Of a stretch of 22,250 nucleotides of DNA, positions 4,232 through 21,583 are shown piece after piece. Position 1 is the stretch's first letter; each line of letters begins with the position of its first letter. The position numbers and the translations under genes are program-made. Origin of the DNA: Candidatus Methylomirabilales bacterium (GTDB lineage: Bacteria > Methylomirabilota > Methylomirabilia > Methylomirabilales > CSP1-5). Below the pieces are notes generated by a model. The model saw only the letters and a list, made by a program, of their open reading frames with translations. It searched no databases and was not told the origin of the DNA. The stretch lies in NCBI GenBank assembly GCA_046758505.1, contig JBHIAH010000041.1, forward strand, positions 1 to 22,250, read 5' to 3'.

Positions 4232-4426
4232 GGTCAGTCCCCCTCGCGTTTCAGTGACCGGGCGGCGTGCTGTTGGCCCGTCTTCACCCCCGATTGTTCT
4301 CCCAATGTGCGCAGGCCACGCCTGGGCGTACGGTGCGGTGTCCGTCCTCGATACCCCCCTGGCTCGTCCGAAGACCACAGGGAGGAGGCGGTATTCTTGG
4401 CCTTTCCTCGGCTATCACAATTCCTG

Positions 4427-4443
4427 AGCAAAATCAGTGCCAA
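4427..4443 (-). promoter_or_regulatory. Sigma54 (-24/-12) promoter for the sensor kinase gene
   Basis: Minus strand reads TTGGCAC-TGATT-TTGCT, matching the TGGCAC-N5-TTGCW consensus with exact GG-N10-GC spacing, about 195 nt upstream of the ATG at 4231. Confidence 0.7.
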
Positions 4444-4605
4444 ATGGGGGTTACCCCCCTGAAAAAGGGGTCCAGCCATCGCCTGGCCCGGCGGGCGCGC
4501 CGGTCGACGTGGGTTTGGGCGCCGTCTGCCTGACGAGCGCGGTCAAGCGGACTCAGCAGCGGATACTGGTGTCGCCGTGGCTTTGGCAGGCTTCCGGGGA
4601 AGGCC

Positions 4606-4634
4606 TTGGTATTTTGGGGGGGAGGCCGTATCAT
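4606..4634 (+). promoter_or_regulatory. Possible sigma70 promoter for phoBR
   Basis: TTGGTA-17 nt-TATCAT, 27 nt upstream of the phoB ATG. Confidence 0.4.
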
Positions 4635-4661
4635 ACCGGCAGAATGGCCGGGAGGGACTTC

Positions 4662-5342
4662 ATGAAAACCAAGGTCCTGGTGGTCGATGACGAGCAGGAC
4701 ATCGTGGATCTGGTCCGATATCACCTGGAACGGGAGGGATACCAGGTGGTCGGGTGCCGAGACGGCAAGTCCGCCCTGGAGCTCGCCAGTCGGGACAGCC
4801 CGGATCTGGTGATTTTGGATCTCCTGATGCCTGGCGTGGATGGCCTCGAGGTGTGCCGTCGCCTCAGGCGGACCTCCACGATCCCCATCCTCATGCTGAC
4901 GGCGAAGGCGGAGGAGATGGACAAGGTGGTCGGCCTCGAGCTGGGCGCCGATGATTACGTCACCAAACCCTTCAGTCCACGCGAACTCGTTGCCAGGGTC
5001 CGGGCGATTCTGCGGCGGGGCGTGGCCGCCCCGGACGAAGAAGTGCTCGGGTTTGGCGATCTTGCGATGGATTTTGCGCGTCATCAGGTCACGGTCCAAG
5101 GGCAGCACGTGTCCCTCACCGCCAAAGAGATGGAGTTGCTGAAAGCGTTGGTCGGGGCCAAGGGCCGCGTGCTGACCCGTGAGTTCCTGTTGGAGCGGGC
5201 TTGGGATTACGACCGGGCCGCCGAGATCGAGTCGCGGACAGTGGACGTTCACATTCGTCGTCTCCGAGAGAAGCTCGGGCGGGCAGCACGGCGGATCGTC
5301 ACCGTCAAGGGGGTTGGATACCGTTTTGATCCGGAGGGATAG
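4662..5342 (+). CDS. phoB: OmpR-family phosphate response regulator PhoB/PhoP
   Basis: ATG 4662 after GGAGGG RBS (the track's 4437 start is over-extended). Receiver motifs VLVVDDE, LILDLLMP, LTAK, GADDYVTKPFS; winged-helix SRTVDVHIRRLREKL...TVKGVGYRF; adjacent to phoR and pst. Confidence 0.9.
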   Translation: MKTKVLVVDDEQDIVDLVRYHLEREGYQVVGCRDGKSALELASRDSPDLVILDLLMPGVDGLEVCRRLRRTSTIPILMLTAKAEEMDKVVGLELGADDYVTKPFSPRELVARVRAILRRGVAAPDEEVLGFGDLAMDFARHQVTVQGQHVSLTAKEMELLKALVGAKGRVLTREFLLERAWDYDRAAEIESRTVDVHIRRLREKLGRAARRIVTVKGVGYRFDPEG

Positions 5343-7190
5343 GTGCCGAGATTTTTCGGACGGCTTCAGGCCAAGCTGGCCCTGATGACCCTGGTCATGA
5401 TTGTGGTCGTGATGGGGGTGGTTGGGTTCCTTGTCGTGCCTCCTCTCGAGGATCTGGCGAAAAATCAGATCGCCCGGGGTCTCGAGGCCCAGGCCCGCCT
5501 GATGGCCTTGGACGTCCTCCCGGTTCTCGATGTCCCGGAGCGGCTTCAGCCGCTGGCCCAAGAGTTTCGCAGGCGGGGCGAGGCCCGTGTCACGGTGATC
5601 GATCGTACGGGGAAGGTCCTGGCGGAGTCGGATCGCGATCCCGAGACCATGGGGAATCACGCGAACCGGCCCGAGGTCCGTGCGGCCCTCGCCGGTCAAA
5701 CGGGGGTCAGCCTTCGCCACAGTGAGTCGGTCGGTCGGGATCTCTTATATGTGGCAATCCCGCTGCAGGGGGGGGCGGGGATCAGGGGTGTCCTGCGGGT
5801 CGCCCTCCCCTTGTCAGCAATCGACCGCACCATGACCTCCATTCAGCGCACAGTGGCTTTAGCGGTTCTGGGGGCTTTTGCGATTGCCTTTTTCCTCAGC
5901 ATTTGGATGGCCCGTCGCGTGAGCCGTCCGGTAACTACCATGGTCGAAGCGGCGCATCAGATGGCCAAGGGGGATCTCGGGCGCCGGGTGCCGATACCCG
6001 CCGAGGAAGAGCTGGCGACCCTGGCCCGAGCCTTCAACGTCATGGCAGAAACGCTCCAGGAAAAGGTCCGAGACCTGGAGCGGGAACAAGCGGCGACGGC
6101 GAGCATATTGGAAAGCATGATTGCAGGGGTAATGGCGGTCGACAGAAACGGGCTGATCGTCATGATGAACTCCGGTGCCCGCCGCATCTTTCGGCTCGCG
6201 CCGGACATTGGAGAAGGGAAACACTTCTTGGAGGTCGTCCGGCATCCGCATGTCAAAGCGCTTCTGCAGGAATGTCGTGAGTGCGCCGAGGGGGCGGTCT
6301 GCCGACGGGAGATCACATTGCAAGCCCCCCCGGTGGACCTCATGGTGGAGGCTGTCACGCTGCGGGGCGGGACCGAGGCTTCGGGGACGCTTCTGGTGTT
6401 TCATGACGTGACAGAGCTGCACCGCCTGGAACGGATCCGCCAGGAGTTTGTCGGCAATGCCTCGCATGAACTCCGCACCCCCCTCACCGCAATCCGGGGG
6501 TATGTCGAGACCCTGCTCGGAGGGGCACTGGAGGAGCCGGAGCGGCGCCGACAGTTCTTGGAGGTCGTGGCGAGGCACGTGGAGCGCATGAACCGCCTGG
6601 TCGATGATCTGCTGGATCTGTCGAATATCGAGACGGGACGACTGCAGCTCGAGCGACAACCCGTTCGGCTCACGGAGATGGCGGAGCAAATCTTTGCGCT
6701 TCACCAAGAGATGGCATCCAAGAAGGGCATTGCCCTTTGCCTTGACGTCAGTCCAGATTCGCCCGCGGTCTTTGCAGATCGGGATCGGCTGCAGCAGATC
6801 CTCATCAACCTCGTGGATAACGCTGTCAAGTTCACCCCTGCTGGCGGAACCGTCACCGTCGCTGCGCGGCCGGTTCAGGGTTCAGGGTTCATGGTTCAGA
6901 GCCGGATCGGTCCGGTCCATGAACCATCAACTATCAACCATGAACTGGCCAGCGATTTTGTGGAGATCGCCGTGACCGACACCGGGACCGGAATCCCCTC
7001 GATGGATCTGCCCCGGATCACGGAGCGGTTTTATCGGGTGGATTGGGGCCGGTCGCGCGAGCTGGGCGGGACCGGTCTCGGGCTGAGCATCGTCAAGCAC
7101 CTGATTCATGCGCACGGCGGCGAGCTGCACATCGAGAGCGAGCTCGGCCGGGGCACCCGCGTCAGTTTCACCCTCCCCATCGCAGCATAA
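5343..7190 (+). CDS. phoR: Phosphate sensor histidine kinase PhoR (2 TM, Cache-like, HAMP, PAS, HisKA, HATPase_c)
   Basis: [10 protein letters not shown] periplasmic motif typical of Pho[21 protein letters not shown]-box, [10 protein letters not shown]-box, [31 protein letters not shown]. Confidence 0.9.
6868..6950. repeat. Palindromic heptamer-repeat element inserted in frame in phoR
   Basis: GGCC-(GGTTCAG)2-GGTTCAT-GGTTCAG ... CATGAAC-CATCAAC-TATCAAC-CATGAAC-TGGCC; the arms are imperfect reverse complements. Confidence 0.75.
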
Positions 7191-12536: not shown

Positions 12537-12869
12537 ATGGTGCTGATCGGCACGTCGATGGCCCTCTTTGTCCTGGCCGGGTTCTGTGAAATCGGGGGCG
12601 GCTATTTGGTCTGGCAATGGTATCGAAACGGCTGGAGTCTCATCTACGGTCTCCTCGGGGGCGCGGTCCTCTTCCTCTATGGGGTGATTCCCACGTACCA
12701 ACCCGCCCATTTCGGCCGGGTCTACGCCGCGTACGGCGGCATCTTCGTCGTCCTCTCGTTATTGTGGGGCTGGGCGATTGACGGTCGAGCGCCGGACCGC
12801 ACCGATCTGCTCGGCGGAATGATCTGCCTGGCGGGCGTGGCCGTCATCATGTACTGGCCGCGAGCCTGA
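12537..12869 (+). CDS. ynfA: YnfA/UPF0060 family small membrane protein (SMR-like)
   Basis: [40 protein letters not shown] signature; GGAGG RBS. Confidence 0.9.
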
Positions 12870-12870
12870 G

Positions 12871-13311
12871 ATGAAAGTGCTGTTCGTCTGCACGGGCAAT
12901 TCGGCGCGGAGCCAGATGGCCGAGGCCTTTGCCCGCCACTACGGGAAGGGACGGGTCGAGGCATCGAGTGCCGGCCTCGATCCCAAGGGACTTCACCCGC
13001 TCACGACCAAGGTGATGGCGGAGAAGGGGATCGATGTCTCACATCAGGAGTCCAAGGCGTTGACCGAGGAAATGGTCCAGGAGGCCGATGTCATCGTCAC
13101 CGTGTGCGGCCACGCCGATCACCACTGCCCGGCCCTTCCCTCCGGCGCCCGCAAGGTCCACTGGCCCATCGAAGACCCCGCTCTTGTGAGCGACCGCACC
13201 CCTGAGGAGGTGCTCTCGGCTTTCCGCCGAGCGCGAGACGACCTCGAGTCCCGCATCCGCAACTTCCTATCTATGCTCGGACGCGAGAACGCTGGGACGC
13301 TAGCACGCTAA
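12871..13311 (+). CDS. arsC: Thioredoxin-coupled arsenate reductase (LMW-PTP fold)
   Basis: P-loop VCTGNSARSQMAE, resolving cysteines in VTVCGHADHHCP, HWPIEDP. Confidence 0.85.
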   Translation: MKVLFVCTGNSARSQMAEAFARHYGKGRVEASSAGLDPKGLHPLTTKVMAEKGIDVSHQESKALTEEMVQEADVIVTVCGHADHHCPALPSGARKVHWPIEDPALVSDRTPEEVLSAFRRARDDLESRIRNFLSMLGRENAGTLAR

Positions 13312-13395: not shown

Positions 13396-13776
13396 CTAGC
13401 GTTCCAGCCCATTCGAGTCGAGCCACCGTGACAGCCACGTGCGGTTTCGGGCGATCCAGCGGTAGATCCGGTCGGCCACCCACATGCCGCCCGGCGCGTG
13501 AAAAGGGAGGGTCGTCAGGGCGGCGTTGGGGAGTCTCGCCAGGGTTTCGCGGACGGCAGCCGCTCCCGTAAAGATTTGTCCGCGCTCGTCGATCAGGTGG
13601 AGTTCGTCGCGGCAGCGCTCTCGCGAGAGGCTTGGGAAACGCGCTTCGAGGTCGGGCTCCTGGAAAGGAATCAGCTCGAGGCGCCTGCTACCGTCCCGCC
13701 GGTGGACCCACCGAGCGAAGCGCCGTCAGAGCCCTCAGTCGCCATCGTAGATGACCACCACCTTACGGTCTAGCAT
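13396..13776 (-). CDS. DCC/DUF393 thiol-disulfide oxidoreductase with UxxU motif (putative double selenoprotein, 126 aa)
   Basis: Translated by hand: MLDRKVVVIYDGD-U-GL-U-RRFARWVHRRDGSRRLELIPFQ...ELHLIDERGQIFTGAAAV...DRIYRWIARNR...LER*. TGA at 13735-13737 and 13726-13728 replace both Cys of the DCC YDGxCxxC motif; family similarity continues past them. Confidence 0.85.
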
Positions 13777-13993
13777 CCCGATCGCCCCCCGGTCGTGTCC
13801 GGTACCGCAGCCAGCCCAGCAGGGCCATTCCCAGGAACAGGGATAGGAGGGGAAACAGCACATAGTCCAGGTAGGGGACCAGCAGGGTGAGGCCGACCAG
13901 GCCGAGCACCCACGGCAAGACCGGCGTGAAACAGCACACGGCCGTGACAATGGTCCCCCACAGCCCTGTTTTGACCAATGGTTGTTTCTGCAT
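13763..13993 (-). CDS. merF: Mercury transport membrane protein MerF
   Basis: GTIVTAVCCFTPVL...GLVGL...YLDYVLFP closely matches MerF (ALCCFTPVL...GYLDYVLLP). It lacks the C-terminal Cys pair. Confidence 0.9.
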   Translation of the reverse strand: MQKQPLVKTGLWGTIVTAVCCFTPVLPWVLGLVGLTLLVPYLDYVLFPLLSLFLGMALLGWLRYRTRPGGDRDARP

Positions 13994-13999
13994 CGTTGC

Positions 14000-14290
14000 T
14001 CAATCCTTGATTTGTTCCAGGGCATAGGCCCCGAACTCGTAGGTGACGCGTTGCTTGGCACCGTGGCACTCGATGAGGTCGCCCGGCTGCACATCGTCGG
14101 GCAAGATCACCATCTCCTCGCCGACGGCACAGCTCGCCTTCTTCACCTCCGTCACGGACCAGACGCCGTCCTCCTCGCTCGCCCGGAGCGAGAGGCCGGC
14201 TCAGTTGGGGCAGTCGAAGACGTCCCCGCGTGTGATCCCAACCGGGATCCCGATCTCTTGCCCTCAGCCCTTGCAGAGTGCTGTCGGCAT
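14000..14290 (-). CDS. Small LysW-like zinc-ribbon protein with two CxxU motifs (putative selenoprotein, 96 aa)
   Basis: GGGAGAAG RBS then ATG 14290: MPTALCKG-U-GQEIGIPVGITRGDVFDCPN-U-AGLSLRASEEDGVWSVTEVKKASCAVGEEMVILPDDVQPGDLIECHGAKQRVTYEFGAYALEQIKD*. TGA at 14264-14266 and 14201-14203 complete the CxxC knuckles; the gene fills the operon gap up to merF. Confidence 0.75.
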
Positions 14291-14308
14291 CGCTCTTCTC
14301 CCCCGGGG

Positions 14309-14504
14309 CTAGCCCCGATCCGAAATTGTCCCCCGACCACGACCCTTTGAATGGCCTTGGAGAAATTGTGTGTCCAGATTGCGAGCAGCCGCTTCTGCCC
14401 CACTCCTGGGGCGTACGCAGCTAACGATGTAATCCTCCTGATTTCGGGGATGAATGCCAATTTCCGAAATTCTAGCGGTCAACCTTTTTTCGGATCGGGG
14501 CTAG
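14309..14504. mobile_element. MITE-like non-autonomous element (188 bp) flanked by CTAG
   Basis: CTAG|CCCCGATCCGAAA (14313-14325) ... TTTCGGATCGGGG (14488-14500)|CTAG: perfect 13-bp terminal inverted repeat, AT-richer interior, located at the glutaredoxin stop codon. Confidence 0.65.
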
Positions 14505-14737
14505 CCGATCCCGAGCAGCCGCTCGATCCTTCCCCGGTCAAAGCCGACGATCACCTCGCCGTCGATGACCGTGACCGGGGTCGCCCGCACCCCCAGCTTG
14601 ACCAGTTCGTCGAGCGCCTGTTGGTCTTCCCGGATATTCTTGGCGATGAACTGGACACCCTTGTGAGAAAGAAACTCTTTCTCTTGGTCGCAGGCGCCTC
14701 AGCCGGGCTGGGTATAGACGATCACCTGTTTCGCCAT
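14501..14737 (-). CDS. Glutaredoxin-like (NrdH/YruB-type) redoxin with UxxC active site (putative selenoprotein, 78 aa)
   Basis: AAGGAGG RBS then ATG 14737: MAKQVIVYTQPG-U-GACDQEKEFLSHKGVQFIAKNIREDQQALDELVKLGVRATPVTVIDGEVIVGFDRGRIERLLGIG*. TGA at 14699-14701; cis-Pro TP and IVGFD Grx motifs lie downstream. Confidence 0.9.
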
Positions 14738-14798
14738 GATTTCCTCCTTGTGTCCTGAGAGGGCGTCTGCGGGCTCCTCCGATGTGTGGGCATCGGCC

Positions 14799-15464
14799 TC
14801 ATCGCATTGGTGGTTCGGGCTCGACCAGGAGCGAGCCAAAGATTTCACGCCCGGCCTCGAAGGCCTCGAGCAGAGAGAGGACGACGCCGGAGGGCTCCCC
14901 GTGTCCCCGCTGCCAGGCCTCGAGGTGGTCACCGGTGCAGAAGAAGCTGATGTGCGGACACCGGGATTGGGCGACGGAACAGCAGTTGTCTTCTTCCGGT
15001 GTGGGAAACCACACAACGATCCCGGAAGGGAGATATCGCGCCAGGTTTTCGGGCTCTGCCCGAACCTCGACGGGCGACTCGCAGTGGGCACAGCGAGACG
15101 AGATTCCCGCGCTCTCCTGCAGCATGGCCGGTATCCCCAGGGCATCCACGGCACACAGGGCAAACACCTCTCGACCGGCGAGGAGGACCCGGTGCGGGGT
15201 CGGGGTCGCAGAGAACGGATAGGATCCCAGCACCGTTTCCACTGTCTGGTCGAGAAAGCAGAGGTCCAGATCCGTCAGTCGGCGAAGGATCTCCCGAACT
15301 CGAACAGAAGAGAGTCCACAGTGATTTTGAAGGCTCGAGACCTCTGGGATTGCCCCCGAGGCAAAGATTTGCAGGATATGGCGCCGGACGTTGTCCTCTT
15401 CCACGGTAAGCCGAGCGGCACTCAATCGGTCCGCGACGGTCTTCACGCTATCAGGGAGCAGCAT
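14799..15464 (-). CDS. merB: MerB-family alkylmercury (organomercurial) lyase
   Basis: N-terminal helical/HTH region, GSYPFSATPTPHRV, FALCAVDALG (catalytic Cys and Asp), SRCAHC, SRCPHISFF (second catalytic Cys); AGGAG RBS. Confidence 0.8.
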   Translation of the reverse strand: MLLPDSVKTVADRLSAARLTVEEDNVRRHILQIFASGAIPEVSSLQNHCGLSSVRVREILRRLTDLDLCFLDQTVETVLGSYPFSATPTPHRVLLAGREVFALCAVDALGIPAMLQESAGISSRCAHCESPVEVRAEPENLARYLPSGIVVWFPTPEEDNCCSVAQSRCPHISFFCTGDHLEAWQRGHGEPSGVVLSLLEAFEAGREIFGSLLVEPEPPMR

Positions 15465-15517
15465 CGTGAATCTCCTGGTCGATAACGGCAGGGGAAAGAC
15501 TCACGTAGCACCGAGGC

Positions 15518-15874
15518 CTACCGGCGTCGGTCGATTCGGGTACAGGCCCAGATGTGCTCGGCGTTATTCGCCACCATGTCGCGCGCCAGCTCCAGAACCT
15601 TTCGAACCCGCTTGTCGGCCACCCGGTAATACCGGTTTCGCCCCTCCCGGGAGGCGGTCACATAGCCGCACCAGCTCAAGCAGGCCAGGTGGCTGGAGAC
15701 GCGCCCCTGGGGGATGCCGAGGATTTCCACGAGCTGGGTGACGGTGCGCTCACCCTCGAGGAGCAGCTCGAGGATTTTCAGGCGGCTCGGATCCCCGAGG
15801 CCACGGAAGAACTTGGCCTCCAGCTGTAGCTGCTCCAGTTCACCGGCCGGAAGCCTATTGCTGAGTGATGACAC
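15518..15874 (-). CDS. ArsR/SmtB-family metal-sensing repressor (CmtR / actinobacterial MerR-like alpha4C type)
   Basis: FRGLGDPSRLKIL, VSSHLACLSWCGYV (CxxxC in helix 4), REGRNRYYR, and a C-terminal Cys (HIWACTR). Confidence 0.85.
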   Translation of the reverse strand: MSSLSNRLPAGELEQLQLEAKFFRGLGDPSRLKILELLLEGERTVTQLVEILGIPQGRVSSHLACLSWCGYVTASREGRNRYYRVADKRVRKVLELARDMVANNAEHIWACTRIDRRR

Positions 15875-15893
15875 GATGCCCCCAATGAGTTAG

Positions 15894-15936
15894 ATTCGGT
15901 TATCCGTATATTACGCGTTCCCGTTTGGACTGTCAA
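15894..15936 (-). promoter_or_regulatory. Sigma70 promoter and candidate ArsR operator of the mer-like operon
   Basis: Minus strand TTGACA (15936-15931)-17 nt-TAATAT (15913-15908). Imperfect palindrome ATTCGG-TTAT-CCGTAT (15894-15909) overlaps the -10/+1 region. Confidence 0.75.
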
Positions 15937-16159
15937 GCATGGATGTTCCTTTTCCCTTCGAGCGGGGAGGTGTGGCGGCCGAGCAAGAGGGGGGTACTCC
16001 TGTGGAGGGCCATCCGGATTCGGGTCGTGGCGACAGTCACCTTCGCGAGCGAGACCGTCCGCCCTGGTTCACCGAGCAGACATGTCGGGGGTCGATCGTG
16101 CGCGGGGTGACGTTGGGGAGGGCGGAGGCGGAAACGTGGCGTTGTGGCGGCAAAAAATC

Positions 16160-16188
16160 TTGACACGGGTGAGGGCGGGGCATATAAG
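16160..16188 (+). promoter_or_regulatory. Sigma70 promoter for ktrBA
   Basis: A-tract then TTGACA (16160)-17 nt-TATAAG (16183). Confidence 0.6.
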
Positions 16189-16190
16189 CC

Positions 16191-17594
16191 GTGAATCAGG
16201 ACAAGGGAGCGTTGAGCCGGATTACCGGAGGCATCCACAAGGTCGCGGAGCGGCCGCTGTCCCCGCCCCGGACGCTCGCCTTGGGGTACGGCGTCTGCAT
16301 TCTGGTGGGGACCGGGCTCCTCATGCTGCCGTACGCCACGGCGGCGGGGGAGAGTCCTCGTCTGATCGAGGCGCTGTTTACGGCGACCTCCGCCGTCTGC
16401 GTCACCGGCCTCATCGTCGTTGACACCGCCCGGTTCTGGTCCCCCTTTGGTCACGGGGTGATCCTGGCCCTGATCCAGGTGGGGGGACTTGGATACATGA
16501 CCGTCTCGACCTTCATTGCCCTGCTCCTCAGGCAGCGGGTCTCCCTGCGGGAGCGGGTTGTCCTGCAAAAGGCGGTCGGGATGCTCACGCTCGACGGGGT
16601 GACCCACTTCCTCAAGCGGATCCTCCTGATTACGGCCGTGGCGGAGGGGGTGGCGACGCTGATTCTCACCCTCCGATTTGCGACGGCACATCCGATCGGC
16701 GAGGCCTTCTTTCTCGGCCTGTTTCACGCCGTCTCCGCGTTTAACAATGCGGGGTTCAGCTTGTTCTCCAACAACCTGGCAGGCTATGTGGCCGACCCGG
16801 TGGTGAACCTTACCGTGGCCTTCAGTGTCATCTTGGGCGGGATAGGCTACCTGGTGATAGGCGAGTTCCTGGAGCGGCGGCGCGAGGGTACCCCCAGGCG
16901 CCTCTCGGTCCATACCCGGTTGGTGCTGCGGGTGACGGCGGGACTCCTGGGGGGCAGCTTCCTGCTTTTCCTCCTCCTGGAGTGGAACAATGCCGCGACG
17001 CTTGGCTCGATGGCGGTTCCCGAACGGCTGCTTGCCGCGTTCTTCCAGGCGGTGACGCCGCGGACGGCCGGGTTCAACACGGTCGGCATTGGGTCTCTCC
17101 GCGAGGCCACGCTTTTTATCTTCCTCGTGCTGATGTTCATCGGGGCATCTCCGGGCGGGACGGGGGGCGGGATCAAGACCACGACCTTCGGGACAGTCCT
17201 GGTCACGCTCTGGAGGAGCCTCCGGGGGGATCGGGACGTCAACGTGTTGGGCCGTCGCCTGCCCCAGAAGGTCCTCAACGACGCCTTTATCCTCGCGAGC
17301 CTCTCCTTCGTCTATGTGGTGGTGGTCACGCTGGTCCTGATGCTGGCCGAGGGCTATCCGTATCTGTTCACACTCTTCGAGGTGACGTCGGCCTTCGGGA
17401 CAATCGGGCTTTCCACGGGCGTCCCGGGCCTGCCGACCAGCCTCTGTAGTATCTTTACCGATTTTGGTAAGATCATCATTGGCGTGACCATGCTCGTGGG
17501 CCGCATCGGTCCCGTCACGTTGGGGGCGGCCCTCTTGTCCAGGGAGCCGACGCCCAGCTATCGGCTGCTGGAAGAGCAGGTTCTCATTGGCTAG
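16191..17594 (+). CDS. ktrB: Trk/Ktr potassium uptake membrane subunit (KtrB/TrkH)
   Basis: Four pore motifs: TATSAVCVTGL, SAFNNAGF, TPRTAGFNT, FEVTSAFGTIGLS; IGASPGGTGGGIKTTT; ends VLIG. The true start may be TTG 16212 given the promoter position. Confidence 0.92.
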   Translation: MNQDKGALSRITGGIHKVAERPLSPPRTLALGYGVCILVGTGLLMLPYATAAGESPRLIEALFTATSAVCVTGLIVVDTARFWSPFGHGVILALIQVGGLGYMTVSTFIALLLRQRVSLRERVVLQKAVGMLTLDGVTHFLKRILLITAVAEGVATLILTLRFATAHPIGEAFFLGLFHAVSAFNNAGFSLFSNNLAGYVADPVVNLTVAFSVILGGIGYLVIGEFLERRREGTPRRLSVHTRLVLRVTAGLLGGSFLLFLLLEWNNAATLGSMAVPERLLAAFFQAVTPRTAGFNTVGIGSLREATLFIFLVLMFIGASPGGTGGGIKTTTFGTVLVTLWRSLRGDRDVNVLGRRLPQKVLNDAFILASLSFVYVVVVTLVLMLAEGYPYLFTLFEVTSAFGTIGLSTGVPGLPTSLCSIFTDFGKIIIGVTMLVGRIGPVTLGAALLSREPTPSYRLLEEQVLIG

Positions 17595-17726
17595 TACCGT
17601 TCCAACTTGTTGCGCCGAATACGGGCAAGGCCGGTTCCGACGAAGGAACGGGCCAAGGAAGCCAGCTGGCTTGCACTTGGCACCACACACCTCTATGCTT
17701 GGCGAGAGCAGTTGGAACGGCACTAA
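17591..17726. mobile_element. MITE/REP-like element (~128 bp) between ktrB and ktrA
   Basis: CTAG|TACCGTTCCAACT (17595-17607) ... AGTTGGAACGGCA (17710-17722)|CTAA: 12/13 inverted repeat, located at the ktrB stop codon and immediately before the ktrA RBS. Confidence 0.6.
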
Positions 17727-17735
17727 GGAGCAGGG

Positions 17736-18410
17736 ATGAGTCAGTCGCAGTTTGCCGTGATCGGCCTGGGGAACTTCGGGTACGCGGTGGCCAGGACCTT
17801 GGCGGAAAAGGGACGCCAGGTCCTCTGTATCGACCGGTGGGAGGAGCGGTTGGAACGGGTCCGCGAGATCGCGACCCATGCGGTCCAGGCGGATGCAACC
17901 GATGAGAAGGCCCTGCGGGAGGTGGGGGTGGCCGAGGTGGATTGCGCGGTGGTGAGCCTGGGCCAAGCCATGGAGGCGAGCCTGTTGGCCGCCATGGCAC
18001 TGCGCGAGATCGGGGTGAAGGAGCTGGTGGTCAAGGCGGTGAGCCCCCTCCATGGCCGCATCCTGAAAAAGCTGGGGGTCGACCGGGTGGTCTTTCCGGA
18101 GGCGGATATGGGCCGGCGGGTGGCGGAGAGCCTGGTCACCCCGTCGATCCTGGACTATCTGGAGCTGGGGGAGGGATTTGGGGTGGCCGAGGTCGGCGCG
18201 CCACAGACATTCTGGGGCAAGAGCTTGGCTGAGCTTGAGCTGCGGAGGCAGTATGGCGTCACGATCCTCGCCATCCGCCGGGCCTCCAAGGGCGAGCAGC
18301 CGAACATCGTGGCGAACCCCTCGGGGGCAGACGTCATTCGGGAGGGGGACATCCTCGTAATTATCGGGGAGAACGAGAAGCTGGAGCAACTCAGTGCGGC
18401 AGGGGAGTGA
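17736..18410 (+). CDS. ktrA: Ktr/Trk regulatory RCK subunit (KtrA/TrkA)
   Basis: FAVIGLGNFG Rossmann motif, VQADATDE, VDRVVFPEADMG, TrkA_C GKSLAELELRRQYGVTILAIRR...GDILVIIG; AAGGAG RBS. Confidence 0.92.
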   Translation: MSQSQFAVIGLGNFGYAVARTLAEKGRQVLCIDRWEERLERVREIATHAVQADATDEKALREVGVAEVDCAVVSLGQAMEASLLAAMALREIGVKELVVKAVSPLHGRILKKLGVDRVVFPEADMGRRVAESLVTPSILDYLELGEGFGVAEVGAPQTFWGKSLAELELRRQYGVTILAIRRASKGEQPNIVANPSGADVIREGDILVIIGENEKLEQLSAAGE

Positions 18411-19135
18411 TGGGGGGGAAAGCTTACGTCGGAACGTCGGGCTGGAGCTATCCCCACTGGCGGGGTGTCTTTTATCCGAAGACGTTGCCGGGGGAGGCGT
18501 GGCTCGATCATTATGCGACTGTCTTCGAGACGGTGGAGATCAACAACACCTTCTACCACCTGCCGGAGGCGACCACGTTTCGCCAGTGGTATCGTGAACC
18601 GCCCAAGGGTTTCGTCTTCGCGGTGAAGGGGAGCCGGTACATTACGCACATGAAGAAACTGCATGAGCCCCGGGCGGCCCTGCGGCGGTTCCTCCGCCGC
18701 GTTGCGATCCTGAAGGAGAAGCTGGGGCCGGTCCTCTTCCAACTCCCGCCGCGTTTCAGGCGCAATGCAGAGCGCCTGGCCGCCTTCGCCGATTGCTTGC
18801 CGCCGAGGCACCGGTACGCCTTTGAGTTTCGGGATGCCACCTGGTTTGCGCCGGAGGTCTATGCCGTCCTAGAAAGACGCCGACTTGCCTTCTGCGTGTT
18901 CAGCCTGAAAGACCTTTCCTGCCCAGCAGTGATTACCGCTCCCTTTGTCTATCTTCGCTTGCACGGGCCGGGCGCCCGGTACGGTGGAAAGTATTCCGAG
19001 GGAGAACTCAAGGCGTGGGCCGGACGGATCCGGGAGTGGCTCGGGGACGGCCTCGACGTGTACAGTTACTTCAACAACGACGAGCGGGGGTACGCGGTGG
19101 CGAACGCGAGGCGCCTTCGCGAGCTGGTTGAGTGA
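18410..19135 (+). CDS. DUF72 family protein (TIM-barrel)
   Basis: VGTSGWSYPHW, TVEINNTFY, FAVKGSRYITH, LGPVLFQLPP, FEFRDATWF, YLRLHG, YFNND; TGATG overlap with ktrA. Confidence 0.92.
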   Translation: MGGKAYVGTSGWSYPHWRGVFYPKTLPGEAWLDHYATVFETVEINNTFYHLPEATTFRQWYREPPKGFVFAVKGSRYITHMKKLHEPRAALRRFLRRVAILKEKLGPVLFQLPPRFRRNAERLAAFADCLPPRHRYAFEFRDATWFAPEVYAVLERRRLAFCVFSLKDLSCPAVITAPFVYLRLHGPGARYGGKYSEGELKAWAGRIREWLGDGLDVYSYFNNDERGYAVANARRLRELVE

Positions 19136-19216
19136 TGTCCCGCCGCGGTGGTCCGGCGGGGAGGTCCCACGATCAGCCCCGAGTGCCGGCACGTCGCTCC
19201 TGGTGGTGAGGCAGGG

Positions 19217-21583
19217 ATGCCCGAAAAGAGCCTCCTGAAGGCAAAGCGGGATATTCGGAAGCGGCGGGTCGGCTCGGCCGAGGGACACCTGCGGCAAGCC
19301 GTGGACGCGCTGCGAGCGGTGCCGGCAGACACCGCAATGCGGCACCGTGAGGAGTGCGTGAACGTGACGTGTGAGCTCGCCCGGGTCGAGGCGCGTGCGG
19401 GACACGTGGCGGAGGCGGAACGGCTTCTCGGCTTTGCCCTGGAGACTGCCGGGGACGGCTGCGCGGTGGCGAGCGGTCTTCAGGTGCGCTGGCTGCGCGC
19501 GCTCCTTTTTGCCCATTGCTGCCGCTTTTCGGACGCCCGTGCGGAGTGTGCGCGGGCCCAGGCCATGGTCCGGGACCCGGGGGTCGAGGCCGTCTGGGGT
19601 CCGGAGCTGCAGGCCACGGTCGGGCTGATCGAGCGAATCGAGGGGGATCGCGTGGCTCGGGTGAAGGTCCCACCGATTTACGTGGATTCTTTGAGCTGGG
19701 AGAGCCGGTTTCTCCACAATGACCTTCACCTCGCCAGGGTCCTGGCGGATGCGGCGGCGGTCGTCTCGGACCTTCGCGTGCGGGATCGCGGTCCCTTCGC
19801 CTGGGAGGTTGAGCTCTGCGTGCGGTTCGAGGCGCCGGCACGCCTGACCGAACTCACTCAGGGTGAGGAATGGAAGCGAGCACAGCTGAAACTCACAGGG
19901 CAAAATCCGGCGGAATTTCCTGGGCTGATCCTGGGTCTTCAGCCGGAGGAGGAGGTTTTGGGGGTCGAGGCGCGCGGAGCCCGAGGGGACCTCATCCCCG
20001 CCTCGGCAGATGCCCGCCCGTGGACCATCTTTCTCCCCGACTCCTACCCGCGCCTCGGCGAGACGCCTCTTGACCACCTCACCGGTGAGACCCGGGGGGA
20101 TGTCCTGCCGCTCTGCAAGCGGTACCGGTATCTGCTGGGGAAGGGGGTGGTGGTTTCGTGGGCCGCAGTCGCCGGGATGACATATCGGCTCAGGGTAGTC
20201 ATCGAGGGCTATCCGAGGGACGGCGAGCTGGCGGGGAAACGAGAACGGGAAAGGCGCCTGTCGCTCTTCGTGCCTGGGGGAAGGGTCCATGTCGGCCGCG
20301 CGCAGATCTCCCCTGCGGATCTCGACGGAGAGGGACCACGCCTGGAGGCATGGGGCCCGTTCGTGGGGCAGGATATCCGGGAGGCGGACGAGGAGATCCT
20401 GCATCAGCTGCTTCGCGCCTCTACGCCCAGCCTCCAGGTTTCTGCGGAGGCCGGGCCGCCGCGGCAGCCGCTTGCAGGGGGACGCCTGCTCCGAGAGGGG
20501 AGGCTCACGCAGCCCGTGGCGCTCGAGGACTTTTCGCTTTTGGTGCTCTCATGGGCGTGGCAACCTTCCGATCCCGTGGCGGTGGCGGTGCGGCCGCTCC
20601 GGTCATCGCTCCCGGTGGCGGTCTACCCGCACCTCCGGGTGCTTGAAGGTTGGAAGGGGTTCGGCGTGCTCGTCTACCAGCTGGCGAATTTCGGGAAGGA
20701 GGCTGAGCGGCTTCGGGTGCGCACGGACTTGCTCGGCTGGTCTCATCCCCAGGTCGAAGAGGTCACCCTGCCACCGGGGAGCATACGCCAGATCCGCCAC
20801 GCCCCCGAGCTCTTGCCCGGTCCGAAAGACGCCGCCGTCGCGGCAGTGCGGTGGGAAGTGGTCCGCGTCCGCGACGGAGTCCTCCTCGAGTCCGGCAGCG
20901 CCCCGATATACTTCGTGGGCCGGTCCCAGCTGCCGCGCGTCCTGATGAGCCCGGAGGACGGCAGGCGGCGGGATCTCAGTCCCTTTGTGGCGGCGTACGT
21001 CATCCCGGGCGATCCGGCAGTTCAGGCGGCGGTGGCCGAGGCGGCGGAATATCTCCCGGGCGATCCTCCCATGCGGATGTCAGGGTATCCCCCGGCGGGG
21101 ACCGCGGAGGAGCCGAGTCAGGCCACCCACGCCCAGGTGGAGGCACTCTTTCGATACTTCAAAGAGGCGCGAGGGCTCCGGTGTACCGGCGAGGAGATCG
21201 TGTGGGGGACGGGGAAGGGATGGGAGGAACAATCCCTCCGATTGCCGCGGGAGACGCTGGAGGCGGGCGAAGGCCATTGCCTCGATGTGAGCCTCCTGAT
21301 GGCCAGTTGTTGTGAGTGCCTGGGTCTTCGTCCCTGGATCTGCCTGACCCGCGGGCACGCCTTCGTGGGGTTTGAGCCGCATGAGGATCGGGATGATGTG
21401 GCCTTCCTGGAGACGGCCTTCCTCGACGCCGGGGTGCCCGGTGGCTACCGGGAGGCCCTGGAGGAGGGGCACCGGTTGTTTCAGTCCGAGTTCGATCGGG
21501 GCGTTCCCGGTCGGAGATGGTGCCGGGGAATCTCGCTCATCGAGGCGCGAAGCCGATGGCAGATCGCCCCGTGGGAGGGGTAA
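19217..21583 (+). CDS. Large hypothetical protein: helical N-terminus, beta-rich middle, C-terminal transglutaminase-like domain
   Basis: Long open frame, ATG 19217 after GAGG (GTG 19148 is an alternative). C-terminus QSLRLPRETLEAGEGHCLDVSLLMASCCECLGLRP...GHAFVG...FLET resembles papain-fold transglutaminase-like domains. Confidence 0.6.
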   Translation: MPEKSLLKAKRDIRKRRVGSAEGHLRQAVDALRAVPADTAMRHREECVNVTCELARVEARAGHVAEAERLLGFALETAGDGCAVASGLQVRWLRALLFAHCCRFSDARAECARAQAMVRDPGVEAVWGPELQATVGLIERIEGDRVARVKVPPIYVDSLSWESRFLHNDLHLARVLADAAAVVSDLRVRDRGPFAWEVELCVRFEAPARLTELTQGEEWKRAQLKLTGQNPAEFPGLILGLQPEEEVLGVEARGARGDLIPASADARPWTIFLPDSYPRLGETPLDHLTGETRGDVLPLCKRYRYLLGKGVVVSWAAVAGMTYRLRVVIEGYPRDGELAGKRERERRLSLFVPGGRVHVGRAQISPADLDGEGPRLEAWGPFVGQDIREADEEILHQLLRASTPSLQVSAEAGPPRQPLAGGRLLREGRLTQPVALEDFSLLVLSWAWQPSDPVAVAVRPLRSSLPVAVYPHLRVLEGWKGFGVLVYQLANFGKEAERLRVRTDLLGWSHPQVEEVTLPPGSIRQIRHAPELLPGPKDAAVAAVRWEVVRVRDGVLLESGSAPIYFVGRSQLPRVLMSPEDGRRRDLSPFVAAYVIPGDPAVQAAVAEAAEYLPGDPPMRMSGYPPAGTAEEPSQATHAQVEALFRYFKEARGLRCTGEEIVWGTGKGWEEQSLRLPRETLEAGEGHCLDVSLLMASCCECLGLRPWICLTRGHAFVGFEPHEDRDDVAFLETAFLDAGVPGGYREALEEGHRLFQSEFDRGVPGRRWCRGISLIEARSRWQIAPWEG

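Follow-up and report, generated by a model that had tools for sequence, protein, structure and literature searches.

A selenoprotein-rich, mer-like operon lacking a recognizable mercuric reductase gene in a Methylomirabilota genome

The window analysed here is the whole of a 22,250-nt stretch of contig C41 from a Candidatus Methylomirabilales genome of 2.99 Mb (estimated to be 96.8% complete), the relatives of which are labelled Methylomirabilota/NC10. On its minus strand, from 15936 to 13396 and including a promoter, lies a row of six genes reminiscent of a mercury resistance (mer) operon, three of which contain in-frame TGA codons. In the direction of transcription, and all on the minus strand, the row encodes an ArsR-type regulator (15518..15874; 118 aa, from a GTG start), a relative of the organomercurial lyase MerB (14799..15464; 221 aa), a glutaredoxin-like selenoprotein (Grx; 14501..14737; 78 aa), a selenoprotein composed of tandem LysW-like zinc ribbons (hereafter, the ribbon protein; 14000..14290; 96 aa), the mercury importer homologue MerF (13763..13993; 76 aa) and a DCC1-like (DUF393) selenoprotein (DCC; 13396..13776; 126 aa), whose ATG overlaps the 3' end of merF. 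The five TGA codons, which we read as selenocysteine (Sec or U), occupy position 13 of Grx (14699-14701), positions 9 and 30 of the ribbon protein (14264-14266 and 14201-14203, respectively) and positions 14 and 17 of DCC (13735-13737 and 13726-13728, respectively).

Upstream of the ArsR gene is a sigma-70-type promoter, TTGACA-17-TAATAT (15908..15936, minus strand), that agrees with the consensus at 10 of 12 positions; promoter-like sites number two in the region, as against the 0.3 expected from shuffled sequences. Spanning the -10 hexamer is an operator-like inverted repeat (15894..15913, minus strand), for which the relatives provide the consensus ATACG-N6-CGTAT, the copy in the window being imperfect. 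Both elements, the -35 hexamer and this repeat, are seen again ahead of the ArsR gene in related loci: the hexamer is conserved in four of six aligned loci, and an alignment of seven upstream regions has invariant columns across the stretch containing the repeat. We infer that the repeat is the ArsR operator. Taken together, the gene row and the promoter scan bear out a first-pass annotation of this DNA, which had proposed, from the letters alone, a single minus-strand operon with its own TTGACA/TAATAT promoter.

It is very probable that each of the five in-frame TGAs encodes Sec: the genome has the machinery for it, homologues have Cys at the aligned sites, conservation of the coding sequence extends past the TGAs, hairpins accompany every site and DNA runs across the region are free of variants. 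Each of selA, selB, selC and selD, for which the first-pass annotation had proposed a search, is present in the genome. The tRNA-Sec has the anticodon TCA and reaches 80 bits (gathering score, 47); selA and selD score 607 and 407 bits against cut-offs of 268 and 125, respectively, the latter gene itself carrying one in-frame TGA; and selB, which is cut by a contig end such that positions 1-391 of 581 are matched, scores 333 bits against a cut-off of 242. The same annotation had placed the five TGAs of the three genes at conserved Cys positions and, indeed, Cys aligns at every one of them, with Cys/Sec swaps between homologues being seen across the Sec sites of all three families. The Grx site is TGA in 31/31 sequences; ribbon position 9 is TGA in 27/34 and a Cys codon (TGY) in 7/34, and ribbon position 30 is TGA in 32/34 and TGC in 2/34; the DCC motif reads YDGDUxLU in 12/12 distinct close copies, as against YDGxCxxC in 19/19 distant copies checked. 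Protein identity of 45-90% continues through and past each TGA across dozens of genomes, and the decay of sequence beyond the TGAs that had been named as a potential refutation is not seen in the relatives. Moreover, contigs from four DNA runs span all five TGAs with zero sequence differences, these runs stemming from one study and possibly from the source sample, such that they do not constitute independent support.

Four hairpins resembling selenocysteine insertion sequence (SECIS) elements lie 7-15 nt after a UGA, with the G-containing apical loops GUU, GGUU, CGGGC and GGUC; all are on the minus strand. The grx hairpin, GAGAAAGA-GUU-UCUUUCUC (14665..14683), is 15 nt past the UGA and has eight pairs; each of these is retained by 27-31 of the 31 sequences, three of which show a compensatory change from AU to CG. 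Codons 19-24 of grx are fixed at their synonymous sites on rare A/T-ending codons in 24-26 of 25-26 sequences (GAG in 26/26, AAA in 24/25, TTT in 24/26, CTT in 26/26 and TCT in 25/26); three to five codons are used for other invariant Grx residues. In the ribbon gene, the U9 hairpin GAUCCC-GGUU-GGGAUC (14234..14249) is 14 nt past the UGA, and a stem of at least 6 bp is found in 23/27 TGA sequences versus 1/7 Cys-codon sequences, a contrast that is descriptive rather than a statistical test, the sequences being mutually related. The U30 hairpin, UCUCGCUC-CGGGC-GAGCGAGG (14173..14193), lies 7 nt past its UGA: the five-pair core CGCUC-CGGGY-GAGCG is kept in 29-30 of 31 sequences, a stem of at least 5 bp is present in 32/32 TGA sequences, and two of three Cys-codon forms (L054 and L060) no longer have the consensus hairpin. 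The DCC hairpin UCGGUG-GGUC-CACCGG (13699..13714) is 11 nt past the second UGA and 20 nt past the first; it takes the form (C/U)CGGUG-GGUC-CACCGG in 12/12 distinct sequences, where a 17-nt core is invariant and flanking synonymous sites vary. Presumably, this single hairpin serves both UGAs, as is assumed for other UxxU selenoproteins. A scan with Rfam, which holds no SECIS model for comparison, gave one sub-threshold chance match only.

Were the TGAs true stops, the three genes would have to be pseudogenes, split genes or the products of assembly errors. Gene callers do truncate the homologues, as had been foreseen in the first-pass annotation: when 5.8 billion proteins were searched with the ribbon protein, there were 149 matches, and among the best 120, a few are full-length with Cys at both sites but the majority are fragments (53-63 aa) starting just past the second TGA. 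Such a reading would, however, have to accommodate the identity that is sustained through each TGA, the Cys residues found at the same sites, the conserved hairpins, a complete Sec machinery and the agreement of the four DNA runs; we find it barely credible and, as far as sequence analysis reaches, it is refuted. An alternative genetic code, in which TGA specifies Trp or Gly, was also rejected, as TGA aligns with Cys. Additionally, TGA is the genuine stop codon of both merB and the ribbon gene, which argues for site-specific recoding rather than an altered code.

The three selenoproteins differ in how far they can be assigned to known families. Grx matches the Pfam Glutaredoxin family (1.2e-12) and has the active site U13-G-A-C16 (UxxC); it scores 73.8 bits with the YruB-type model TIGR02196, under the cut-off of 88.55, and is also under the Uxx-star cut-off. 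The ribbon protein is formed of two LysW-type ribbons: site 1, C6-x2-U9...C27-x2-U30, provides a four-ligand Cys2Sec2 knuckle, and the second half contains C54, C75 and H76. At the four ligand positions, Cys or Sec is found in 34/34 sequences. The match to Zn_ribbon_LysW (PF21344) is weak at 19.9 bits (cut-off 27), and NF041070 gives 39.4 bits (cut-off 75). The AlphaFold2 (AF2) model is all-beta (pLDDT 90.8), and its best fold match is LysW (3vpb_E; TM 0.71, E 0.022), which is also the best sequence relative; on the basis of the model, only a shared fold class with LysW/ArgW is claimed. A natural all-Cys homologue (P0004) falls in a protein atlas among LysW-like clusters only, with scores of at most 0.86, and this serves as a lead only. 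In two relatives (L037 and L050), there is a third Sec at ribbon position 27 (D-U-P-N-U), giving a Cys1Sec3 site, and genomes G018 and G228 have three TGAs within the ribbon match. DCC belongs to PF04134 (3.8e-25; 89.8 bits versus a cut-off of 27.8), with D-G-D-U14-G-L-U17 in place of the DxxCxxC that follows strand 1 in this family. No sequence match to DCC was found in the PDB. Its AF2 model (pLDDT 81.9) adopts a thioredoxin-like fold in which helix 1 opens with UxxU, and the top fold matches are mycoredoxin and thioredoxins, albeit weak ones (E of at least 0.03), so that here, too, only the fold class is claimed.

Of the remaining three proteins, the regulator is of the ArsR/SmtB type, and there is no MerR-family regulator in the operon. 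It matches HTH_5 of Pfam (2.7e-16) and exceeds the cut-off of the general ArsR model NF033788 (85.7 versus 55 bits), with Cys residues at C65 and C69, forming the α4 pair, and at the C-terminal C111. The best match in the PDB is the Cd/Pb sensor CmtR (2jsc; 4.2e-13), with which both α4 metal-ligand Cys residues align; with the CmtR equivalog model, the score is 61.6 bits against a cut-off of 150. The MerB protein, the only one in the genome, matches PF03243 (5.9e-37; 126.9 bits versus a cut-off of 27) and retains C104, D107 and C169. These we take to be equivalent to the catalytic Cys, Asp and Cys of the plasmid enzyme, namely C96, D99 and C159. The best PDB match is MerB2 (5c17; 6.9e-21), with which C-A-V-D and the second Cys align, although 5c17 itself has Ser at the Asp site. 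MerF scores 74.6 bits with NF033565 (cut-off 50) and 38.5 bits with PF11431, and has the vicinal pair C20 and C21. What the operon does not contain is merA, just as had been noted from the letters, and this absence extends to the source genome, where the best match, an NF004991 flavoenzyme that lacks the C-terminal Cys pair, reaches 398.6 bits (cut-off 454.45). Across the genus, MerA is above cut-off in 0/14 genomes, or 0/13 without the unpublished genome G033.

To place the operon among its relatives, 36 related loci were retrieved by ribbon alignment from one-genome-per-species contigs of Methylomirabilota and Rokuibacteriota, the mer-gene counts per locus referring to the retrieved contig DNA. 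Grx is encoded in 31/36 loci, its gene immediately preceding the ribbon gene in 29 of these, and at least one mer-family gene (MerB, MerF, MerC, MerE, MerT or MerA) is found in 20/36. All six genes stand in this same order in L039, L043 and L045, and L044 shares the order with ArsR not in the covered DNA; both the Cys/TGA pairs and the synteny with merB and merF for which the first-pass annotation had suggested looking are, therefore, found among the relatives. In L028, MerB and the ribbon gene are followed by a bona fide MerA (561.5 versus 454.45 bits) that has an NmerA domain and the C-terminal Cys pair. The suggestion that the Sec proteins might act upstream of MerA is, thus, in keeping with the Grx-ribbon pair beside MerA in this one relative. 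Other loci contribute MerC, MerE, MerT-like, MerP-like and MerR genes.

The DCC protein has a narrower distribution in its Sec form. When the phylum (251 genomes) was searched in six frames, 128 genomes gave DCC matches (the genome tallies include the unpublished G033 in the genus and G043, G075, G216 and G217 in the phylum). Two-TGA forms account for 12 matches (68-81% identity), in the window genome and 10/13 of its genus-mates (9/12 without G033, whose operon order is also in the public record behind L045). The other 117 genomes have forms that are no more than 43% identical; among the matches listed, two TGAs are found in none of these distant forms, and both sites are Cys in the 19 that were checked. 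Judged by these sequences, the UxxU form of DCC is confined to the genus of the window. It follows Grx(U) in 10/11 contexts, including the window, with the ribbon gene or merF between them sometimes absent. Being the constant neighbour of both, Grx appears to be the common partner of the ribbon protein and DCC. A second DCC(UxxU) locus, L072 (G030:C170, 3-3355), encodes a MerT-like protein, an HMA(UxxU) protein, MerF, a membrane protein, DCC(UxxU) and a glutathione-reductase-like flavoenzyme, the last of which is a possible electron donor.

On balance, and by a modest margin of confidence over doubt, we interpret the row as a metal-inducible operon that would handle Hg(II) and organomercurials without mercuric reductase, using selenolate-bearing acceptor and relay proteins; the mercury role is suggested by the gene neighbourhood and known chemistry. 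Selenolates bind Hg more tightly than do thiolates. Hg(II) would enter via MerF, or be released from organomercurials by MerB, and would then be passed to the selenolate ligands. The ribbon protein could be the cytoplasmic acceptor or chaperone, in the role played by NmerA or MerP in canonical systems, and Grx may be the hub, which would join DCC in exchanging ligands between selenols and thiols and in maintaining the Se sites in a reduced state. Where a relative has MerA, the Grx-ribbon pair probably feeds this enzyme, and in the genus of the window, the end point may be sequestration. A further likely benefit would be the shielding of a very large selenoproteome from Hg. A more ambitious version of this scheme, which we hold only tentatively and consider doubtful as it stands, is that Grx(U), the Cys2Sec2 ribbon and the UxxU DCC form a selenolate relay that enables detoxification free of MerA, with Hg being locked away as inert Hg-Se or reduced by a diselenol. 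The first-pass annotation had arrived at a selenium-dependent mercury system. The Sec genes and machinery, the synteny and the absence of merA uphold the selenium-dependent part of it, but a strictly mercury-specific reading is weakened by the CmtR-like ArsR and by a MerB that is below the equivalog cut-offs.

Several observations weigh against the mercury interpretation, and a number of them are equally the case for its main competitor. The latter holds that the operon protects more generally, and not specifically from mercury, against soft metals or against stress on selenols and thiols. ArsR would then respond to a thiophilic metal or metalloid such as Cd or Pb, some other organometal would be the substrate of the MerB-like enzyme, and thiols and selenols that had become oxidised or metallated would be repaired or buffered by the Sec proteins. 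As judged by sequence, the regulator is closest to the Cd/Pb sensor CmtR and not to MerR; MerB falls below two NCBIfam equivalog cut-offs (104 versus 193 and 91 versus 200 bits) and is equally far from SaoL (model NF040728; 68.1 bits versus a cut-off of 140, with no TGA in the gene). Furthermore, 16/36 Grx-ribbon loci have no mer gene in the covered DNA, several having instead PCYCGC, PNPOx-like, ArsP or DsbD-type genes, and ArsR and Thioredoxin_3 also occurring in some; for this reason, the Grx-ribbon pair may serve soft metals or redox stress more generally. YnfA and a low-molecular-weight phosphatase (LMWP) arsenate-reductase-like gene, which neighbour the operon in the window, point the same way. 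What holds us back from this alternative, which we would rank as unlikely but worth taking seriously, is that MerF is above its equivalog cut-off, that MerB retains its Cys-Asp-Cys set and that 20/36 loci do have mer genes, including the mercury-typical MerA, MerC, MerE, MerT and MerP-like genes. Three further difficulties concern the mercury scheme itself: no productive fate is known for Hg(II) that is imported in the absence of MerA; the Cys2Sec2 knuckle might do no more than hold a structural Zn ion; and the ribbon gene, not found in 5/13 genus-mates and reduced to a C-terminal fragment in one (G035), is on this account dispensable. The fragment, at 2093-2188 of L063 (G035:C32), is the last third or so of the gene and remains between grx and merF in an otherwise intact operon.

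The missing end point would be supplied if the Sec proteins replaced MerA, such that the UxxU DCC, recycled via Grx(U) and a disulfide reductase, reduced Hg(II) or made inert HgSe, and detoxification ended within the operon. Diselenols are stronger reductants than dithiols, the genus keeps MerB and MerF with MerA over cut-off in none of its genomes, the UxxU form of DCC is restricted to that genus and, in G030, the DCC(UxxU) gene is directly followed by the glutathione-reductase-like flavoenzyme gene. This idea is, nevertheless, without precedent, the stability of Hg-Se bonds would disfavour the release of Hg(0), and the window operon has no reductase gene; we think it improbable. More improbable still is that the operon handles selenium. 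Its products would then deliver or recycle selenide or organoselenium to meet the needs of the large selenoproteome, and C-Se bonds would be the target of the MerB-like enzyme. This would suit a genome that is unusually selenoprotein-rich, in line with a recent review (PMC13188914), and an operon with Sec in all three accessory proteins. Within the operon, however, there is no selD, selenocysteine lyase or ybbB, and the recurrent neighbours of these genes are mer genes. To our knowledge, no MerB relative cleaves C-Se bonds.

In comparison with canonical mer operons (Tn21/Tn501 type; merR-merT-merP-(merC/F)-merA-(merB)-merD), the window operon shares the Cys-Asp-Cys set of MerB, the vicinal-Cys importer MerF and a first gene that encodes a metal-sensing repressor. 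The hand-over of Hg(II) between paired soft ligands, which is the working principle of mer systems, is also common to the mechanism proposed here. It differs in lacking MerA, MerR, MerP, MerT and MerD, in having an ArsR/CmtR-type regulator instead, and in having three Sec accessory proteins. A parallel to the latter is the selenocysteine-assisted organometallic (SAO) system, the description of which (10.1101/2022.07.06.499078) portrays a MerB relative, SaoL, set among thioredoxin-like and metal-binding selenoproteins with Sec at presumed metal-contact sites. SAO is, however, a system of strict anaerobes that has been proposed to serve metabolism rather than resistance (10.1101/2022.07.06.499078), and the window operon has an all-Cys MerB, no ABC transporter, SaoE, SaoC or SaoD, and no Sao genes nearby. 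The same paper makes no mention of DCC, MerF, LysW or zinc-ribbon proteins, and its authors state that none of the selenoproteins in their catalogue belongs to a family involved in mercury resistance (Haft & Gwadz 2022, by the NCBI selenoprotein curators; 10.1101/2022.07.06.499078, section 30).

Sec forms of MerT-like and HMA proteins have been predicted, as listed in Table 1 of a 2026 review (PMC13188914), and resemble the proteins described here in having Sec for Cys at metal-binding CxxC-type sites and in being relatives of mercury-trafficking proteins; indeed, genes for them adjoin the Grx-ribbon pair or DCC in L050, L072 and L028. They belong, however, to other families that are absent from the window operon, and no operon-level system with MerB and MerF has been described for them. 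The same table reports Grx selenoproteins (PF00462, UxxC) to be experimentally verified; the window Grx has the same fold and UxxC motif, whereas its clade scores below the cut-offs of TIGR02196 and Uxx-star and is fixed beside the ribbon and DCC genes. As for the LysW/ArgW carriers (PDB 3vpb_E), the likeness is the LysW zinc-ribbon fold in each half of the ribbon protein, and the differences are the tandem arrangement, the Sec ligands, the sub-cut-off scores for both families and the location of the gene in mer neighbourhoods rather than in lysine biosynthesis clusters. The acidic tail motif of the LysW/ArgW carriers is not seen in the ribbon protein.

The ribbon and DCC proteins, thus compared, apparently constitute two uncatalogued selenoprotein families, with the proviso that the most recent selenoprotein lists might already name them. 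Deng et al. (2026, Cell Rep 45:116760), for instance, are reported to have found 63 selenoprotein genes in a Methylomirabilota metagenome-assembled genome. No model of NCBIfam release 20 claims either protein, and neither PF04134/DCC nor a LysW-type ribbon is among the 119 selenoprotein families in the PMC13188914 table. The papers on BSepDB and deep-Sep make no mention of DCC, DUF393, LysW, ribbon or mercur; no literature was found that links selenocysteine with DUF393; and a search on selenoproteins in mer operons or in Methylomirabilis returned nothing relevant by title or abstract. The claim of the first-pass annotation that no mer operon built around selenoproteins has been described is in accord with this, none having been found in the literature.

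Further Sec-containing relatives of mer proteins were encountered in the phylum. MerB-domain matches occur in 155/251 genomes, and most carry one in-frame TGA; among the matches listed, nearly all of those below about 104 bits have a TGA. In four examples (L053:2866-3483, L035:1927-2619, L050:3330-3740 and L047:2724-3139), the TGA is at the second catalytic Cys (for instance, AHUPRTNFF and SLUTxLNFF). As these Sec-MerB examples score under both the SaoL and the MerB cut-offs, the clade appears from its sequences to be uncatalogued, the MerB of the window being a Cys form. The mer-type clusters of relatives (L050 upstream and L028:2500-3230) encode Sec forms of MerP-like HMA domains with GMTUGSU or GMTUPGC and a MerT-like protein with a CU motif, and L050 also encodes, at 4263-5678, a MerA-like flavoenzyme whose active site is C-x4-U and which lacks the C-terminal Cys pair.

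Within the operon, grx and the ribbon gene are separated by an unconserved spacer of 210 bp (14291..14500, minus strand) that differs between strains. Its mean column identity across six loci is 41%, and a hidden gene or RNA in this position was rejected, given the lack of conservation among loci and the variability between strains. In the DNA runs, a joint skips 14328-14484 (runs X1 and X3), and loose ends are located at 14307-14309 and 14503-14504; co-occurring strains differ in the spacer or miss about 155 bp of it. The genes in the remainder of the window are ordinary: a PAS/GAF kinase, PhoB/PhoR, PstSCAB, PhoU, YnfA, the LMWP arsenate-reductase-like protein, TrkH/TrkA, DUF72 and DUF3105. 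YnfA (UPF0060) and the LMWP-type gene (12537-13311, plus strand) adjoin the operon downstream of the complete pst-phoU cluster. An open frame of 818 aa (15933-18389, minus strand), without a family match and antisense to the real TrkH gene (16191-17594, plus strand), was dismissed as a high-GC artefact, and the long open frames at 19148-21583 (plus strand) and 18869-20404 (minus strand) gave no Pfam match.

The toxicity of mercury is largely a matter of its affinity for selenols, and the operon and its relatives suggest that bacteria have turned this same affinity to defence or trafficking. If this is true, it would add two selenoprotein families, namely the DCC1-like UxxU proteins and the tandem LysW-type ribbons, that are truncated by standard gene callers; it would explain the usefulness of merB and merF in genomes without merA; and it would provide concrete small proteins for the study of Hg-Se chemistry. 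It would also bear on the cycling of mercury and methylmercury in groundwater and sediment, which are common habitats of these methane- and nitrite-linked bacteria. Were the more ambitious selenolate relay also to be real, a whole phylum would have rebuilt mercury resistance around selenocysteine, including Sec at a catalytic Cys of many of its MerB proteins.

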